Shown here: positions 11,388-27,996 of the stretch, in pieces
Numbering within the stretch: the stretch's first letter is position 1
Layout: each line of letters starts with the position of its first letter
IMG/VR virus record: IMGVR_UViG_3300012153_000001
Coordinates: 1,190-65,189 of that record
Reading direction: 5' to 3' (one strand)
DNA: 64,000 nt
Source: a virus
Program-made: the position numbers and the translations under genes
Notes under the pieces: model-generated
Seen by the model: the letters and a program-made list of their open reading frames with translations, nothing else
The model's database searches: none
Told to the model about the DNA's origin: nothing

Positions 11388-11423
11388 TACGCAATTTACA
11401 CGCTCGCAAAATAACGAAGAGGA

Positions 11424-11846
11424 GTGATTTATATCGCACATGTTTCAGAAAGAGTCGGAAAGTATTCGGAGCTGGCGGCGCGTCTTGCGCTGCTCGCTAA
11501 CGGATGGACCGTACACAAGGCGGAGACGGACGAAGCGTACGATATCCTGGCGTGCGATCCATTATCGGGCGACTACGCTAAGATTCAGGTGAAGACGGTC
11601 AGACAGCGGATGGACCGCGGCGGCGACCTCGTAGTTTATGCGCGGAAAGGGAACGGAACAACGTACGACTTATCCGACGCTGATCTAATAATTGGCGTCT
11701 GGGCGCAAGATGGCGAAATGCCGCGCGTATTTATGTTCGAGAACCGATTATGCGGAGAGTACTGGGCGCGGGAAGCAAGCGCGAGTGAGCGTTGGGTTGA
11801 GCTCTCGTTAGCGTTGAACCGCGGATTAGTAACAGCGGCGGCCTAA
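11424..11846 (+). CDS. PD-(D/E)XK-type endonuclease (Hjc/PDDEXK_5-like)
   Basis: EAYDILAC...KIQVKT resembles a D..(D/E)xK core. The start is uncertain: GTG 11424 lies inside the SD, and ATC 11433 lies 8 nt after it. Confidence 0.5.
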   Translation: MIYIAHVSERVGKYSELAARLALLANGWTVHKAETDEAYDILACDPLSGDYAKIQVKTVRQRMDRGGDLVVYARKGNGTTYDLSDADLIIGVWAQDGEMPRVFMFENRLCGEYWAREASASERWVELSLALNRGLVTAAA

Positions 11847-13381: not shown

Positions 13382-15244
13382 GTGCGGACTACAACGAAAG
13401 GAGTGAGCGCTATATCACCGAAACTAACGCTAAACTTACGGCCGCCAGCGGATGACGAAGCGGCGGAACGGGTGGCAGACGCAGCTAAACGGAAGAAGGC
13501 GGCGCAGGAGACGGACGAAGAGGCGATCGACCGCGTACTGCGGATGTCATTAACGGATAAGCAACGCGAGGCAATCGAAGGCTTACGGCAGGTATACGGA
13601 TCGGGCGAAACAGGCAATCGTCCGACTCTCCGTACCTCTGGCGGCCAAGTAACGAAAGAAGACGTAATCCGCGCGGCTGAACAACTGCAACGACAAAGGC
13701 AGACGGATCAGCGCGCGGAGAAAGTTGCGGAGACATTGCGGTCAAAGCCGGATAATTTCCACATCGTAACGGATGACGCGGAGTTACCTGCGTTCGTCGA
13801 GCGTATTCGCGAAGAGTGTCGGCGCCAAATGGCGGAGTGGCCGGATAGGTGGGCGATACTTGGCGTAAAATCGCTGACCGCGAATGACTTCGAGGGAACC
13901 GGAGTAGACACGTACATTGACGTATCAATCGGATATTCCGTATGGCTTCCGTTACTGGACGAAGGGTACTACCTTCCGTATGGGCACGTTGACATGCGCG
14001 GAGAATCGGGCTTCGACTTCCTGGACGATATGAGCGCACATAAATCAACCGACCGCCAGCTCACGCGTTCAAAAGTTCTCGCGGCAATCACGCCTTATCT
14101 ATCGCAACCAGCGCATGGCAAATCGTTTCATATGGGATCTGCGCGCTATGACTTACACGTTGCGATTAAAGACGGCTACGAGATTCACGGCTGCGTATGG
14201 GATTCGCTGGACGCGATGAACTCGTTAAATGAGCACGAGGAGTACTTCGGTCTCAAACCGTTAACCGCTAAATACGGACGTTACTTCGGAATTGACGGTC
14301 CGGTCTATACGTTTGAAGACATGTTTGGAAACCGTTCGCCAGCTCCGTTCAGCATCGAACTCGTCGGAATCTACGCGATCAAGGACGTACTGTACGGTTG
14401 GCGCCTTACGGAATGGCAATTCGAACAGATGCGCGTTACGCCGTCCGCAGAGAAGCCGGGCAAGCTTCTCGAATGTTATGCGCAAATTGACTCGAAGCTT
14501 CCGGAGACAGACGTATTCTTGGCGCGGTCCGGCTTCTGCGTTGATATTGACGGACTCGCCGCGTTAGAAACCGAGTTCGAACCGCTACTTGAGAAGGCTC
14601 GTGCTGACGTATTCGAAGCGTACGAAATTGACGACGCGTTTGTACGTAAGATGGACCGCACGATCAACGCGGCTAAGGTTACGGACTGGATCGATAAGCA
14701 ACGTAAGAGGATCGCACGGAATGCGGAAGCTCAGGAGAAACAACTCGCGATAATCTCGGAATGTAAAGCCGCAGGGAAAACGCAGCTCAAGAAATATACG
14801 AACGCGGTCGAAAGGCTTGCGCAATTGAAGGCGGAGAATTTAGCGCCAGCCGACGAAGAGCACGCGCCACTTAACGTAACGGAGTTTTCGATAACGAACG
14901 GGAATCACCTTGCGTATCTGATTTACGATCACCTCGGAATACGCGACCGCACCGGACAGTTCAAGCGCGGCAAGAACCGCAGTACGGCTGCTGACGTCAT
15001 GGAGGCGTATTACGAAGAGGAAGAAGCGCTCAAGCCGTTGGCGACCGTGGCTGCGTACGAGAAGCTGCTAACAACGTATATCCAACCGATGTTAGGGAGC
15101 GCGGGCAAATCGTCCATTATCGAAGTGGATGGGCGCGTACACTCGGAGTTCAAAGCGGGAGGGACCGCAACAGGGCGGTACAGTTCGTCAGGATACAGCG
15201 GAAGACCGATCGATATATTACGCGAATTTGAAACGGAGGAATGA
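13382..15244 (+). CDS. polA: family A DNA polymerase, N-terminal part (3'-5' exonuclease + N-terminal pol domain)
   Basis: Exo I-like NDFEGTGVD. The ORF ends ...GGTATGRYSSSGYSGRPIDILREFETEE*, right after the PolA TGRxSS motif. The start is uncertain (GTG 13382, or ATA 13412 after an SD). Confidence 0.85.
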   Translation: MRTTTKGVSAISPKLTLNLRPPADDEAAERVADAAKRKKAAQETDEEAIDRVLRMSLTDKQREAIEGLRQVYGSGETGNRPTLRTSGGQVTKEDVIRAAEQLQRQRQTDQRAEKVAETLRSKPDNFHIVTDDAELPAFVERIREECRRQMAEWPDRWAILGVKSLTANDFEGTGVDTYIDVSIGYSVWLPLLDEGYYLPYGHVDMRGESGFDFLDDMSAHKSTDRQLTRSKVLAAITPYLSQPAHGKSFHMGSARYDLHVAIKDGYEIHGCVWDSLDAMNSLNEHEEYFGLKPLTAKYGRYFGIDGPVYTFEDMFGNRSPAPFSIELVGIYAIKDVLYGWRLTEWQFEQMRVTPSAEKPGKLLECYAQIDSKLPETDVFLARSGFCVDIDGLAALETEFEPLLEKARADVFEAYEIDDAFVRKMDRTINAAKVTDWIDKQRKRIARNAEAQEKQLAIISECKAAGKTQLKKYTNAVERLAQLKAENLAPADEEHAPLNVTEFSITNGNHLAYLIYDHLGIRDRTGQFKRGKNRSTAADVMEAYYEEEEALKPLATVAAYEKLLTTYIQPMLGSAGKSSIIEVDGRVHSEFKAGGTATGRYSSSGYSGRPIDILREFETEE

Positions 15245-15248
15245 GTAG

Positions 15249-15578
15249 ATGACTAAATATCTTTTGCCTCTCATTGACGGTGGTATCGTGAAAATTGAGA
15301 CTGATTCGGAGTACTCGCCAGGCTGCGAGACGTGTGACTACGGAAGTTTATATATAAACGATTTCAACGTTCTATTGAGTACTGGAAATATATACGTCAG
15401 AGCAGAAAATATGTACGAGTACGCATTGTCCGAGGGCTACTTAATGGAGCTCATTCTTCCGAATACAGACCTTATTAAAGGGATGACAGAGCGTGGGTTC
15501 TTTGAGTGGGTTGAGGAGAGCCTGCGAGGTAAGTTTGGAAGTCTAATCGATATTTGCGAGTTCAACGCTAATGCCTAA
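15249..15578 (+). CDS. hypothetical 109-aa protein inserted inside polA
   Basis: SD GGAGG lies 10 nt upstream. AT-richer than the flanks. CETCDYG is the only motif seen. No homing-endonuclease motif recognised. Confidence 0.6.
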   Translation: MTKYLLPLIDGGIVKIETDSEYSPGCETCDYGSLYINDFNVLLSTGNIYVRAENMYEYALSEGYLMELILPNTDLIKGMTERGFFEWVEESLRGKFGSLIDICEFNANA

Positions 15579-16659
15579 CATAACTGACGCTAATTACCAC
15601 GCTATTGTCCGTAAGCTTATCGCAGACAACCGCAAGGTAAGACGCGGCCTCAACGCCCAGAATTTACCATCTAAAGGCGCAGGCAGCCGCGTCCGTAATC
15701 AATTCGTTCCTCGCGAAGGCTTCACGTTTGTCGGCGCCGACCTCGGGCAGATAGAGCCTCGAATAATGGCGCACATCATGTATACGAAATATAACGACAA
15801 CTCTATGCGTCAAATCTTCGTAGACGGCGTCGACCTCTATACGACTATGGCGATGATGACGTTCGACTTGCCAGAAGAATACTGCGTCGACAAAGCGTAC
15901 GATCCGACCGGCAAGTTCAAGCCGCGCGTAATGATGAAGACAGGCCAGCTCGCGGTGTCATACGATCAATCCGTTAAGTCTTTCGCGAAGAAGATGCAAG
16001 TTACCGACGACGTTGCGCAGATGTTCTTCGAAAACTTCGACCAAACGTTTCCGTCGTTTAAAACGATGGTGGCCGATATTCGCGACTTCATGCGTCAGCA
16101 CGGTTATGTAGAAACACTTTTCGGCCGCAAACGTCGCTTCCCGGATTATAAACGCGTAGCTGCGTCAGCATCGAAGAATGAGCAACGGTTGATCCGCTTG
16201 TACACTGAACGGAAATCACTCCGCCGCCTGACGCCGACCGATGCAGAACAACGAAGGATCACCGCACTGCAAGAGGAGATAGGCAAGCTCGCAGAGGATC
16301 GCGGTAATGTCGGCTACTGGGAACGTGCTGCCTTCAACGCGGTTATCCAAGGAACTGGCGCGGACATCCTCAAGCGCATTGGTATCCGTATGGCACAGAT
16401 ATGTCGAGAACGCGGATGGGAGTTTAACGCGTCAATACATGATGAAGTTATCGTAAGCATTCCGGACGATCAAATGACGCCGGAAACAATCGCGCTTATT
16501 AACGAAGTGATGACGAAGACTTCCGAGTTAAGCGTGCCGCTTACGACGGACATTGCGATACAAAAGCGCTGGATGATGGAGTATTCAGCGGACGAATGGG
16601 ACTACGCGAATAACCGGCCGTTGCCGGAGTTTGCGAATAAATACGGGGAGGCTGCGTAA
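15571..16659 (+). CDS. polA: family A DNA polymerase, C-terminal part (motifs A, B, C)
   Basis: LNAQNLPSKG (the PNLQNIP equivalent), motif A VGADLGQIEPRIMAH, motif B KTGQLAVSY, motif C SIHDEVIV. The ATG overlaps the stop of the inserted ORF and has no SD. Confidence 0.85.
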   Translation: MPNITDANYHAIVRKLIADNRKVRRGLNAQNLPSKGAGSRVRNQFVPREGFTFVGADLGQIEPRIMAHIMYTKYNDNSMRQIFVDGVDLYTTMAMMTFDLPEEYCVDKAYDPTGKFKPRVMMKTGQLAVSYDQSVKSFAKKMQVTDDVAQMFFENFDQTFPSFKTMVADIRDFMRQHGYVETLFGRKRRFPDYKRVAASASKNEQRLIRLYTERKSLRRLTPTDAEQRRITALQEEIGKLAEDRGNVGYWERAAFNAVIQGTGADILKRIGIRMAQICRERGWEFNASIHDEVIVSIPDDQMTPETIALINEVMTKTSELSVPLTTDIAIQKRWMMEYSADEWDYANNRPLPEFANKYGEAA

Positions 16660-17559: not shown

Positions 17560-18183
17560 ATGAACGAAATAGTAACGGTAATTGACATCGAAACAACCGG
17601 ACTTGACCCGCTCACCGATCATATTACGGAAATCGCCGCCATCCGTGCGGAAGTTGGGTCGGGCAGTTACATCCGCGAGATCGGACGGTTCCAGACGTAC
17701 GTTGCACTTCCGCTGGGTGTTAGGATTCCGGAGAAGATTACGGAGTTGACCGGAATTAAGGCGGAGGATTTGCGCGATGCTCCTTCGGAAATAAACGCTT
17801 GGACAATGTTACAGCGACTGTCTCGGGGATCTCGATTAGTGGCGCATAATGCTCCGTTCGATCTCGCGTTTATTAGGCCGGTAATGCACCAAGGATTCGC
17901 CTGCACTCGCGCCATGTCCCGCCTAATTGATCCGGACGAGAACGCAAGCCTTGCGCCGACATGTGAGCGTTACGGAATCGCGCTTAACGGACATCACCGC
18001 GCTATGAATGACGTGGAGGCTACGCTGCAGCTTTACGCAATCCTGCGGGAGAAAGCGGAAGTTAACGGAATCACATACCGCAATGTCGTCGTTGATAGCG
18101 CGGAACGGCCGCTGACGTATACGCCGCCTGGCGCGATTGTGCGTACGATTACGCGGAAACAACAAACTAAGGAGGCGGTTTAA
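17560..18183 (+). CDS. DnaQ-like 3'-5' exonuclease
   Basis: Exo I VIDIETTGLDP, Exo II AHNAPFDLAF, Exo III HRAMNDVEA. Confidence 0.8.
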   Translation: MNEIVTVIDIETTGLDPLTDHITEIAAIRAEVGSGSYIREIGRFQTYVALPLGVRIPEKITELTGIKAEDLRDAPSEINAWTMLQRLSRGSRLVAHNAPFDLAFIRPVMHQGFACTRAMSRLIDPDENASLAPTCERYGIALNGHHRAMNDVEATLQLYAILREKAEVNGITYRNVVVDSAERPLTYTPPGAIVRTITRKQQTKEAV

Positions 18184-19233
18184 ATTACGGATAACCAACT
18201 AATCGCAAATAGAATCGCGGAGCAATTTACGGTATTCCTGAACGAGTGGCATTCCGCGCCAGAAGTGTACGACGACGCTCTCGACGCGCAGATTCACGGC
18301 TGGTATCAAAACGTACTTACGGACAAATCACGCAAAGTATGGCCGCCGCGGAACATTCCGTACTTCTCGCCAAGCTCCTCCAACTCCGATGCACGCGGCC
18401 TCTACGAAAAGATGCGCGGCGCTAAGCGTGAGTCATCCGACCGACCTGCGCATCAAGGACGTTGGGTCCGGATAGGGACGGCAATTGGCGATGTCATTCA
18501 GCGCGATATTCTGTTCGCGGAGAAACATTACGCACGCCATTACGGAGAGAATCCGCGCTTCACATTCGACCGTAACGAACGCGGCGAGCCGGTATTCGAG
18601 GACTTCGCTAAACGCGGCCATATCGTTAATCACGGCGGCCAGACATTCGCGTTATATGGAACATGCGACGGAATCATGCAAGTTTACGTACCGGAGCTCG
18701 GCCGGACGGTGCGCGTCGGCCTCGAAATTAAATCGAAGCAAGGAACGTACTCCGCGACATCCGGATATTCCACGAGGAATGGCGCGAAGGAAGACCACGT
18801 TAAGCAATGCGTCTGCTACTCGATTATGTATGACGTTGACTTCTACGTAATCCTCTACGTTAACGCGAGTAAGAAGGCGTGGGCGATGCCTGACGTGGAT
18901 ATCGAAAAGTATCCGGACATTGCGGCGTTCGGCCTGCATATTACGGATGCGATGCGCGGTGAAATGCTTGACCACTTCGCCGAAATCGTTGACGCTGCGA
19001 ATAAAGGCGAGCCGCCTGCGCTGGATCTCGATAAGTGGTTATTCCTAGACTTCAAGCGGACGGTATCCTTGTCACTTTCGGAAGACGAGGTGGAAGCGTT
19101 AAGGCGCAAAGTAGCCGCGATTATGAGATCGAACCTGCCGGACTGGAAGAAGCGCGGGCCGGCGGAGGCGTTAGCGGATATTGAGCGGATTAGGGAGGAA
19201 GAGGCGGAGAGCCAAACGAAGGAGGCTGCGTAA
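18184..19233 (+). CDS. PD-(D/E)XK (RecB/YqaJ-type) nuclease, probable ATT start
   Basis: GTCDGIM...GLEIKSK core. AAGGAGG (18169-18175), 8 nt, then ATT 18184. The first canonical start, GTG 18265, has no SD. Confidence 0.6.
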   Translation: MTDNQLIANRIAEQFTVFLNEWHSAPEVYDDALDAQIHGWYQNVLTDKSRKVWPPRNIPYFSPSSSNSDARGLYEKMRGAKRESSDRPAHQGRWVRIGTAIGDVIQRDILFAEKHYARHYGENPRFTFDRNERGEPVFEDFAKRGHIVNHGGQTFALYGTCDGIMQVYVPELGRTVRVGLEIKSKQGTYSATSGYSTRNGAKEDHVKQCVCYSIMYDVDFYVILYVNASKKAWAMPDVDIEKYPDIAAFGLHITDAMRGEMLDHFAEIVDAANKGEPPALDLDKWLFLDFKRTVSLSLSEDEVEALRRKVAAIMRSNLPDWKKRGPAEALADIERIREEEAESQTKEAA

Positions 19234-19235
19234 TT

Positions 19236-19448
19236 ATGAACGTACTCAAACGCATACTTAACGGAATTGCATATGTAGGTGTGACCGCCGCTACTCTATA
19301 CGGCTTGATGCTGTGGATTATCCTGCTCGCGAATAGTGGGAATACGTGGCTAACTCGGATTGGATTTGCGTTAATCATTCTCGCGCTATTTATCCAGGGA
19401 TACACGTCAGGAGGCGATAACAATAGCGAAGCCAAAAGCGCAGACTAA
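19236..19448 (+). CDS. small membrane protein
   Basis: SD AAGGAGG upstream. Two hydrophobic helices. Confidence 0.5.
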   Translation: MNVLKRILNGIAYVGVTAATLYGLMLWIILLANSGNTWLTRIGFALIILALFIQGYTSGGDNNSEAKSAD

Positions 19449-19959
19449 ACGTTACGCCGGACTCGACCTTTCGTTAACTTCGCCAGGCTTTGCGGTTGTG
19501 GACGTGAAGAATCGCGTCCCTAAGTTAGTCGCCACATCCATCGTTAAAACTGACGCAGGCGAGGCGCGCCCGTTACGCTACGAAGTCATCGAAGCTCACG
19601 CGTTATTATTCTTCCGCGAACATAAGCCTGATTCCGAAATCATTCGTGAGATATGGCCGCCAGCGCGTAACTACGAACAGAACGATAAGGTTCATGGAGC
19701 ATGGTCGGCGGTTGATCGCGCACTATCGCGGCTTGGCTACGAGGTTGCGGAGAATCTGACACCACCTAACGTTAAGAAACTCGTAACAGGAAACGGTCGC
19801 GCTGAGAAACCGCAAGTTGCGGAAAGCGTGCGGAAGATACTACGGCTCGGCCCTGATTACAAGTTCGCGTCCGGCTACGATGACTCGGATGCTGCAGCGG
19901 TAATTCTGGCGTACCTTATCCGCGAGAACTTAATTGATACGGAAGTGGCCGCGGCATGA
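19423..19959 (+). CDS. RuvC-like Holliday junction resolvase, probable ATA start
   Basis: AGGAGG (19409-19414), 8 nt, then ATA 19423. The catalytic-type N-terminus YAGLDLSLTSPGFAV lies upstream of the first canonical start (GTG 19498). A DDSDAAAVILAY motif is also present. Confidence 0.65.
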   Translation: MAKPKAQTKRYAGLDLSLTSPGFAVVDVKNRVPKLVATSIVKTDAGEARPLRYEVIEAHALLFFREHKPDSEIIREIWPPARNYEQNDKVHGAWSAVDRALSRLGYEVAENLTPPNVKKLVTGNGRAEKPQVAESVRKILRLGPDYKFASGYDDSDAAAVILAYLIRENLIDTEVAAA

Positions 19960-27503: not shown

Positions 27504-27522
27504 CAACGAAGGAGGCGGATTA

Positions 27523-27996
27523 ATCTCGCTAAGTATAATCGCGCAAATCATCGTAGCTTTATCCGTAGGACTAAGCGCAGTTAACGGAGTCCCACCGAAC
27601 GAACCGATGCAACCACCCGCAGTCTCTTCGCAGGTAACAGGCAAACTTGCGAAAGAACAGGCGGAGATTAAGGCGCATGACGACGCGTGGCAAACGTACG
27701 AAGCGACTGCTTATACGGCGTTTTGCTCCGAAGGATGTACGGGAATCACCGCGACCGGCCTCGACGTCAGCGAAACGACTACGTATAAAGGGCGCACGGT
27801 TATCGCAACTGATCCGAAGGAGATCCCGCTTGGCACGCGGATAACAATACGGACTGCTGACGGTGGGGAAATCGCAGGCATATCGCAAGACCGCGGATCG
27901 GCGATTAAAGGCCGCAAGCTTGACGTATTAGTTGCGTCGGAAAAGGAAGCGCGCCAGTTCGGACGCCAGAAAGTACGCGTTAAAATCGAAAACTAA
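27523..27996 (+). CDS. secreted/anchored 3D-domain (MltA/RlpA-like) cell-wall protein, probable ATC start
   Basis: 3D-domain pattern YEATAYT..GITATG..IATDP..IPLGT..DRGSAIKG..LDV. GAAGGAGG (27508-27515), 7 nt, then ATC 27523. This start adds the hydrophobic N-terminus SLSIIAQIIVALSVGLSAV. Confidence 0.6.
   Translation: MSLSIIAQIIVALSVGLSAVNGVPPNEPMQPPAVSSQVTGKLAKEQAEIKAHDDAWQTYEATAYTAFCSEGCTGITATGLDVSETTTYKGRTVIATDPKEIPLGTRITIRTADGGEIAGISQDRGSAIKGRKLDVLVASEKEARQFGRQKVRVKIEN

Follow-up and report, generated by a model that had tools for sequence, protein, structure and literature searches.

In Staphylococcus aureus, AUA start codons of infC, ccpN and citZ and an AUU start codon of cvfC1, all behind an extended Shine–Dalgarno (SD) sequence, have been mapped by retapamulin ribosome profiling and reporters; they give approximately 10–30% of the output of AUG, and the AUA start of ccpN is also conserved in Bacillus subtilis (PMC13009471). 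In Escherichia coli, AUA, AUC, AUU and CUG give 1–2% of the AUG level (bioRxiv 10.1101/063800), and the inefficient AUU start codons of infC and pcnB limit expression (as cited in PMC13009471). Here we describe a RuvC-like resolvase gene of a phage that appears to use the same kind of start. The gene lies in a stretch of 64,000 nucleotides (nt) of IMG/VR virus record IMGVR_UViG_3300012153_000001 (positions 1,190 to 65,189 of that record), which we refer to as the window, and its genome is that of a ~65-kb tailed phage of Paenibacillaceae type. Comparison with relatives makes it highly likely that this gene is translated from AUA 19423 behind a strong SD, and indicates that a putative weak near-cognate start combined with a strong SD is a property of the gene family and not an accident of one genome.

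The start region of the gene contains the following features.

19236–19448, + strand: upstream gene for a membrane protein of 70 amino acids with two hydrophobic helices (a listed open reading frame, ORF; stop TAA 19446–19448)
19372–19374, + strand: in-frame TAA that closes the RuvC frame on its 5′ side
19409–19414, + strand: SD of the RuvC-like gene, AGGAGG, read directly; predicted duplex with the 3′ end of 16S rRNA, −13.9 kcal/mol
19423–19425, + strand: proposed AUA initiation codon (ATA), in frame, 8 nt 3′ of AGGAGG
19423–19959, + strand: predicted RuvC-like Holliday-junction resolvase, full coding sequence of 178 codons plus TGA (PF02075, phrog_159 and PDB RuvC matches, AlphaFold2 and Foldseek)
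19465–19467, + strand: GAC, codon of the first catalytic Asp (D15, in G-L-D-L-S), which aligns to the Asp of the RuvC GID motif
19498–19500, + strand: GTG, first canonical start in the frame and the choice of gene callers, probably unused (SD duplex −2.5 kcal/mol)

An earlier reading of the window made from its letters alone (the sequence-only reading) had noted that the first ATG, GTG or TTG in this frame is GTG 19498, that the frame opens past TAA 19372–19374, and that AGGAGG is followed after 8 nt by ATA 19423. The coordinates were exact, and the SD and its spacing were confirmed by reading the sequence. Indeed, the 41 codons from this TAA to GTG 19498, which read SFSRYLSRDTRQEAITIAKPKAQTKRYAGLDLSLTSPGFAVV, include no ATG, GTG or TTG, and there is no canonical start between TAA 19372 and the Asp codon at 19465. 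Two in-frame ATA codons follow the SD, at 19417 (2 nt past it) and at 19423 (8 nt past it); ATA differs from AUG at one position and is thus a near-cognate. The SD has extended complementarity to the 16S 3′ end and its 8-nt spacing falls within the range of 5–10 nt; in the relatives the corresponding duplexes range from −11.5 to −20.3 kcal/mol. The last 26 nt of the upstream ORF overlap the RuvC start, so that the RuvC SD lies inside the upstream coding sequence, the upstream stop falls 23 nt past the RuvC start codon, and RuvC is at +1 relative to the upstream frame. Loci L005, L030 and L034 likewise have an upstream ORF of 70 amino acids with a C-terminal tail of this type (…GGD…). The RNA around the RuvC start is unstructured relative to shuffled sequences (z = +1.27), and we found no regulatory structure masking the start. 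The sequence of the window is identical to part of a 65,095-bp Logan contig (run SRR6448731); gene callers applied to this source contig give a GTG-started product of 153 amino acids, and a second contig encodes the same product.

What is at stake in the choice of start is the active site. The Pfam RuvC profile PF02075 scores 47.5 bits, well above its cut-off of 22.2 (E 2.2e-12), its positions 3–146 of 148 aligning to residues 29–178 of the stop-to-stop translation, and phrog_159, a RuvC-like resolvase family, matches with E 3e-22. In the Pfam alignment the onset of the RuvC domain is G-L-D-L-S, 13 codons 5′ of GTG 19498. An AlphaFold2 model (predicted local distance difference test score 90.2, predicted template modelling score 0.86) has strand β-1 at residues 9–15, including D15, and β-2 at residues 22–29, and in a Foldseek search of this model against the PDB the best 12 matches are all bacterial RuvC (template modelling (TM) score 0.81–0.87, E 1e-13 to 3e-11). 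Aligned to RuvC sequences from the PDB, D15 corresponds to the Asp of GID, E76 to the Glu of IEQ, and D153 and D156 to the D-x-S-D-A motif; across 23 aligned family members, each of these four positions is either invariant or conserved to at least 90%. The four acidic residues of the E. coli enzyme (D7, E66, D138, D141) thus all have their counterparts, D15 being present only with a start upstream of GTG 19498. A start at GTG 19498 (residue 26) would lose β-1, D15 and half of β-2 of the RNase-H-like core, and the sequence upstream of GTG 19498 is therefore essential to the enzyme. The sequence-only reading had taken the codons ahead of GTG 19498 for the RuvC N-terminal strand with its first catalytic Asp, and had argued that starting at this GTG would delete an active-site residue. 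Pfam, the PDB alignment and the model all bear this out, with alignment to RuvC resolvases placing the first Asp at D15 and the GTG start removing it along with β-1. We conclude that 19423–19959 encodes a predicted RuvC-type Holliday-junction resolvase, intact at 178 residues and with predicted cleavage activity.

Relatives of the gene were found only by searches at the protein level; when the region was compared by megablast with 50,697 phage records, there were no matches. By tblastn the gene is present in 53 phages, and the best matches are Halcyonevirus phages of Paenibacillus larvae, with 57% identity and the N-terminus covered. We fetched 12 + 80 loci from IMG/VR, 18 from genomes (prophages of Paenibacillus, Neobacillus, Brevibacillus, Cohnella and Fontibacillus) and 8 from metagenomes, which left 91 distinct loci once duplicates were removed; the bulk of the statistical weight lies with IMG/VR, the genome and metagenome scans having given just the 18 and 8 loci, respectively. 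Start calls were curated in 89 of the 91, and the two ambiguous loci (L035 and L097) were excluded from the statistics. Calls of ACG, ATA or ATT beside a real ATG or CTG were corrected by hand (L002, L029, L031, L032, L037, L051, L057, L069, L083, L114, L118 and L121). At the homologous start site the 89 curated loci carry the following codons.

CTG: 26 loci
ATA: 12 loci
ATC: 7 loci
ACG: 6 loci
ATT: 1 locus
TTG: 4 loci
GTG: 1 locus
ATG: 32 loci

In each curated locus the homologous start codon is in frame, 8–9 nt past the SD and 6–23 codons ahead of the catalytic Asp. The codons at the site encode Leu, Ile, Thr, Val or Met, and this is thus not an amino-acid position; the comparison indicates that it is constrained to codons that pair with the initiator tRNA at two of the three bases. 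The automated start caller weighed near-cognate codons only and is hence circular as a test of this pattern, and we used an SD-anchored count over all three frames instead. The count covered the 63 non-redundant relatives with an exact GGAGG at most 100 nt upstream of the Asp codon and involved no pre-selection of codons. An AUG near-cognate was found in frame at a spacing of 5–10 nt in 57 of these 63 loci, while the two remaining frames had 5 and 7, and the in-frame pattern after the SD is thus far beyond chance.

The window's ATA 19423 aligns to the CTG of L013 and L014 and to the ATA of L034, L075, L076 and L079. The first eleven codons of the window, ATA GCG AAG CCA AAA GCG CAG ACT AAA CGT TAC, are identical to those of the CTG-started L014 past the first codon, except for the very last base (CGT TAT in L014); L013 shares the CTG-start sequence of L014 but reads CGG. 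The close relative L034, a JGI metagenome locus with 92% amino acid identity, reads GGGAGGCGATAACA ATA GCG AAA CCA…. On a neighbour-joining tree of the 91 proteins, Fitch parsimony requires at least 20 changes of start codon. At least four separate clades have ATA, three have ACG and two have ATC, and CTG and ATA alternate even within one tight clade (L013/L014 vs. L075/L076/L079). The strength of the SD varies inversely with that of the start codon: most of the relatives from Paenibacillaceae phages combine a weak near-cognate (CUG, AUA, AUC, ACG or AUU) with an unusually strong SD, while the ATG relatives have a weak SD. Weak starts (n = 52) have a mean SD duplex energy of −15.7 kcal/mol and ATG starts (n = 32) one of −9.5 kcal/mol, with p = 7e-12 in a Mann–Whitney test that carries no phylogenetic correction. 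In some prophages NCBI already annotates the homologous CTG as the start (P0014, MAPKPETKRY…; P0024, P0078, P0092 and P0098); none of the inspected NCBI annotations of RuvC relatives starts at ATA, ATC or ACG.

A second line of evidence comes from the codons between the proposed start and GTG 19498. G-L-D-L-S-L is invariant in all 54 of 54 weak-start loci, although 2–6 synonymous codons are in use at each position. Between the window and L034 the first 25 codons contain 6 differences, all 6 synonymous, and over the whole gene 59 codons differ synonymously and 14 non-synonymously. The pattern of substitution indicates that the region upstream of GTG 19498 is translated and under purifying selection. 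In line with this, the GLDLS strand is present in homologues, whose starts do not correspond to GTG 19498.

Taken together, these data would fit the following course of events. Translation would begin at AUA 19423, with AGGAGG, 8 nt upstream, positioning the 30S subunit, and with the initiator tRNA pairing to two of the three AUA bases to give what we infer to be a formylmethionine (fMet) N-terminus. AUA being a poor start, output would amount to a small fraction of the AUG level, and such a low output may suit a structure-specific nuclease that is needed sparingly and is harmful in excess. The inverse relation of SD and start-codon strength suggests that initiation as a whole is kept at a low set-point.

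Several points weigh against this interpretation. The pattern is also compatible with a neutral alternative, in which near-cognates are tolerated behind a very strong SD and drift then produces a similar distribution of codons with no selection on dosage. Initiation at AUA, the fMet N-terminus and the low-dose rationale are all inferred. The loci are not phylogenetically independent, and the p-values are thus overstated. Wherever a weak-start locus has an identifiable upstream gene, the two genes overlap with RuvC at +1, a constancy of frame that a +1 frameshift would also require; we attribute it to inheritance of a junction module (SD, start and N-terminal codons) through mosaic recombination. 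Lastly, going from CTG to ATA takes two substitutions, by way of either ATG or the non-start CTA; the codon would more probably have been exchanged by recombination of the junction module. The upstream overlap may, in addition to marking an inherited junction module, provide translational coupling or occlusion.

Apart from genuine AUA initiation, the sequence-only reading had allowed for a recoding event from the overlapping membrane-protein gene and for a gene inactivated by mutation. The first of the three possibilities gained strong support, given that the homologous site holds only AUG near-cognates or canonical starts 8–9 nt past a strong SD, whereas neither of the other two stood up to the comparison. 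Recoding would take the form of a programmed +1 frameshift, in which ribosomes on the 70-amino-acid gene slip within 19375–19448 and produce a membrane-protein–RuvC fusion that needs no RuvC start. The arrangement of the genes would allow it: RuvC is at +1 to the upstream ORF in the window and in all weak-start relatives in which an upstream gene was found, the upstream stop lies 5–47 nt past the RuvC start, always in the same relative frame, and a CC-AAA-AGC run (19432–19439) could in principle let tRNA-Lys re-pair at +1. We nevertheless regard it as very improbable. The upstream genes are unrelated between loci, encoding Cas4-like proteins of 292–339 amino acids, membrane proteins of 70 amino acids or proteins of 105–128 amino acids, and since they are not homologous the supposed fusions would have unrelated N-terminal parts. 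Moreover, there is no shared shift site; the overlaps have no motif in common, several are just 11–17 nt long with no slippery or hungry-codon motif (L004, ACG TCT TCT GGC GCC TAA, and L047 are examples without a re-pairing site), and L026 has no credible overlapping upstream gene at all. An SD placed 8–9 nt from the near-cognate has the geometry of initiation, close relatives have ATG, TTG or GTG in the same position, there is no stimulatory RNA structure (z = +1.27), and frameshifting leaves the restriction to AUG near-cognates unexplained. Inactivation has even less in its favour. Here an ancestral start would have mutated to ATA, leaving either nothing or a fragment of 153 amino acids from GTG 19498 that lacks the first Asp. 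This is exactly the product that gene callers give for the source contig, and about 20 of the 44 homologous database proteins inspected are likewise truncated; these entries are truncated, however, because gene finders allow only ATG, GTG and TTG. The 25 codons 5′ of GTG 19498 are under apparent purifying selection, as judged from L034 and from GLDLSL in 54 loci, the GTG has no SD (−2.5 kcal/mol) and is not conserved, and in Paenibacillus phage C7Cdelta the first canonical start lies as far as 61 codons past the Asp. The fragment would lose β-1 and half of β-2, and ATA recurs in at least four clades. The synonymous-only change at the N-terminus and the conservation of GLDLSL thus exclude a pseudogene, and we see scarcely any chance that the gene is dead.

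The alternative that comes nearest to AUA initiation is coupling, in which ribosomes terminating at TAA 19446–19448 are recaptured by the SD and re-initiate at the AUA (translational coupling or 70S re-initiation), with no de novo entry of 30S subunits. In almost all weak-start loci the upstream gene stops a short way past the RuvC start, and in 18 of them, including the window and C7Cdelta, it does so at +23 nt despite different upstream genes, while ATG-start relatives mostly have classic overlaps of 1 or 4–8 nt instead. On the other hand, overlap lengths vary from 8 to 50 nt and L026 has no credible upstream gene. Sequence alone does not separate coupling from de novo initiation, and coupling alters only the arrival of the ribosome, AUA still being the start; we consider coupling improbable. 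As a minor variant of coupling, ATA 19417 was considered as the start and rejected, being 2 nt from the SD, with the CTG relatives placing the homologous site at 19423. Sequencing or assembly error, with ATG as the true codon, might be suspected in a window that comes from one automated assembly of one sequencing run. Its probability is close to nil. Independent assemblies have ATA amid other substitutions (L034, the five IMG/VR loci L075, L076, L079, L047 and L074, and others), a second contig encodes the same 153-amino-acid product, and ATA, not ATG, is found at the equivalent of 19423 in the independent L034 (92% identical) and in about ten further loci. The many independent ATA-bearing contigs, together with purifying selection, exclude such an error.

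Initiation at near-cognates in this phage seems to extend beyond the RuvC-like gene. The same signature was observed at four more genes of the window, each with comparative support: a near-cognate in frame behind a strong SD, the first canonical start being either further downstream or buried in the SD. The four candidate starts are listed below.

ATT 18184 (region 18169–18264): Cas4-like PD-(D/E)XK exonuclease (phrog_1706); relatives have ATT, ATC or TTG
ATC 11433 (region 11419–11435): PD-(D/E)XK_5-like protein of 137 amino acids; relatives have ATC, ACG, GTG or ATG
ATA 13412 (region 13397–13414): N-terminal DNA-polymerase-A protein of 610 amino acids; relatives have ATA, ATC or TTG (L125–L132)
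ATC 27523 (region 27509–27996): 3D-domain (PF06725) protein with an N-terminal hydrophobic anchor; ATC in 3 of 3 relatives

The Cas4-like gene probably starts at ATT 18184, which directly follows the TAA of a DnaQ-like exonuclease gene and lies 8 nt past AAGGAGG. Relatives have ATT (L003 and L028), ATC (C7Cdelta-type phages, L022, L026, L027 and L029) or TTG (L013, L034, L024, L036 and L092) as the start, and the canonical call, GTG 18265, has no SD and drops 27 residues. In the PD-(D/E)XK_5-like gene, GAGGAGTGAT precedes ATC 11433, the canonical call GTG 11424 is inside the SD, and the residues that follow the ATC (AHV.E..GKYSE) are conserved. ATA 13412 of the 610-amino-acid protein follows AAAGGAGTGA; the canonical call is GTG 13382, and the C-terminus of the protein matches the first third of the DNA_pol_A profile. 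In the 3D-domain gene GAAGGAGG is found 7 nt ahead of ATC 27523, and the canonical call is ATG 27607. The ATC is kept in all three IMG/VR relatives (L122–L124), in which the first canonical start is not reached until within the membrane helix; the phrog_22529 match to the extended protein begins at residue 12, and the extension fills an otherwise non-coding gap (27504–27606). Overall, about 5% of the genes of this phage appear to be read from near-cognate starts, and most of these genes encode nucleases or replication enzymes. In the four gene families with at least 7 related loci in the comparison, the codon swaps freely among CUG, AUA, AUC, AUU and ACG.

One might imagine that near-cognate starts behind extended SDs constitute a deliberate expression class, a start-codon 'regulon', in this Paenibacillaceae phage lineage, or else reflect unusually permissive Paenibacillaceae ribosomes; we put this forward tentatively and think it unlikely. 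The class would comprise at least five genes, those of the RuvC resolvase, the Cas4-like exonuclease, the PD-(D/E)XK endonuclease, the N-terminal DNA-polymerase/exonuclease protein and the 3D-domain wall-hydrolase-like protein. If it existed, initiation fidelity (IF3 availability, growth state, infection stage) would gate its output, which would then be more than simply capped.

Phage C7Cdelta (NC_055028.1, 41707–43234; L001/L133) illustrates the consequences for annotation. Its RuvC is annotated as the 102-amino-acid gp63 from ATG 42926, on the basis of 'longest ORF'. RuvC homology begins 225 nt ahead of this ATG, which lies 61 codons past the Asp. The RuvC frame opens past a TGA that is part of GGAGGTGA, contains no canonical start ahead of the Asp codon, and has a CTG 9 nt past GGAGG. 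Comparative evidence thus points to CTG 42701 as the RuvC start in C7Cdelta, and to ATC 41707 as the start of its Cas4-like gene (annotated from GTG 41848). The same annotation is found in the P. larvae Halcyonevirus phages Ley, Ash, Unity, Heath, Halcyone, Scottie and Tripp. A heuristic whole-genome scan, which gave clear false positives and is to be taken as a pointer only, returned CTG 3129 (portal), ACG 37639 (DNA polymerase) and ATA 43370 (ribonucleotide reductase large subunit) as candidates in C7Cdelta, and one candidate in Bacillus phage 268TH002. In the latter phage (L134, ON210835.1, ~52565, locus 37031) a 'lytic transglycosylase' gene, a possible counterpart of the window's 3D-domain gene, contains GAGGAGGTG with an in-frame ATC 5 nt on; this ATC lies 11 codons past the annotated start. 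The use of near-cognates may thus reach into Bacillus phages. Separately, we observed that the family-A DNA polymerase of the window appears to be split: 13412–15241 matches DNA_pol_A positions 5–124 at its C-terminus, a 362-amino-acid ORF (15571–16659) holds the rest of PF00476, and a 109-amino-acid ORF (15249–15578) lies in between. The same arrangement is found in C7Cdelta (gp57, gp58 and gp59).

Because gene finders allow only ATG, GTG and TTG, the RuvC-like enzyme ends up either beheaded or over-extended in databases. About 20 of the 44 homologous database proteins inspected are without the strand that carries the catalytic Asp. Some family entries (P0008, P0010, P0020, P0021 and P0063) are instead extended too far, to a far-upstream ATG or CTG, and are translated through the SD; in P0063, MAHAWDGRCRIISR…, the residues G-R-C come from GGGAGGTG. 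The error is passed on to predictions of function and structure and to pham clustering, and cloning the nuclease genes from their annotated starts would yield dead enzymes. Conversely, replacing AUA with AUG may cause toxic over-expression. The family is also a natural allelic series, in which the same gene, with the same SD and spacing, is found with eight start codons and at least 20 changes between them, and this makes it testable whether weak starts are selected for low expression or merely tolerated with a strong SD. A known mechanism is thus unrecognised in a widespread family of phage RuvC-like genes, which is systematically mis-annotated as a result.

Compared with described systems, the protein itself is like bacterial RuvC in fold and active site. 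It shares the RNase-H-like fold with the enzymes of E. coli (1HJR), Thermus thermophilus (4EP4/4LD0), Pseudomonas aeruginosa (6LW3) and Deinococcus radiodurans (7XHJ), with a root-mean-square deviation of 2.1–2.5 Å and Foldseek TM scores of 0.83–0.87 normalised to the target, and the acidic tetrad D15, E76, D153 and D156 aligns. Unlike these enzymes, with which it has only 22–30% identity, it has a Lys/Arg-rich N-terminal extension of 8 residues before β-1, is encoded by a phage, and adjoins genes for Cas4-like and DnaQ-like exonucleases with no ruvAB partners in the window. The RuvC of Lactococcus phage bIL67 (PDB 4KTW) is also a phage resolvase of the RuvC superfamily, though far more distant (TM 0.55–0.62, 11% identity), and we know of no report of a non-canonical start in that gene. 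As for recoding, the locus is like prfB-type +1 frameshifting in having an overlapping upstream ORF, a downstream frame at +1 and an SD-like element nearby. In prfB the SD is about 3 nt from the shift codon; the phage loci differ in having no conserved shift site, an SD 8–9 nt from the near-cognate, and upstream genes that are unrelated from one locus to the next.

With regard to the start codon, E. coli infC and pcnB are cases where a poor start caps the level of a harmful or tightly dosed protein; the likely filter is discrimination by IF3, and infC forms an autoregulatory loop through IF3 itself. The phage RuvC gene would resemble both in having its dose capped by a poor start codon; unlike in infC, nothing suggests feedback, and the host phylum differs. 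The closest parallel is with the AUA and AUU starts of S. aureus, with which it shares a weak near-cognate at normal spacing from a long, strong SD, a Gram-positive (Bacillota) context, and conservation of the site. The S. aureus starts were experimentally shown, whereas that of the phage gene is proposed here from comparison of sequences. In S. aureus the genes are chromosomal, have regulatory or housekeeping roles and keep a single conserved codon, while here the gene encodes a phage nuclease whose start codon turns over among CUG, AUA, AUC, ACG and AUU, with the site and its SD staying fixed; unlike in S. aureus, the start lies inside the 3′ end of the preceding gene. A comparative paper on P. 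larvae phages lists 'resolvase RuvC' without comment, and the searchable literature yielded no account of this, whether for non-canonical starts of phage resolvases or for those of P. larvae phages or of Paenibacillus, an absence that is not proof of novelty. The mechanism, a near-cognate start combined with a strong SD, is thus already known and the RuvC gene would join it, while the turnover of weak starts across an entire gene family appears to be undescribed.

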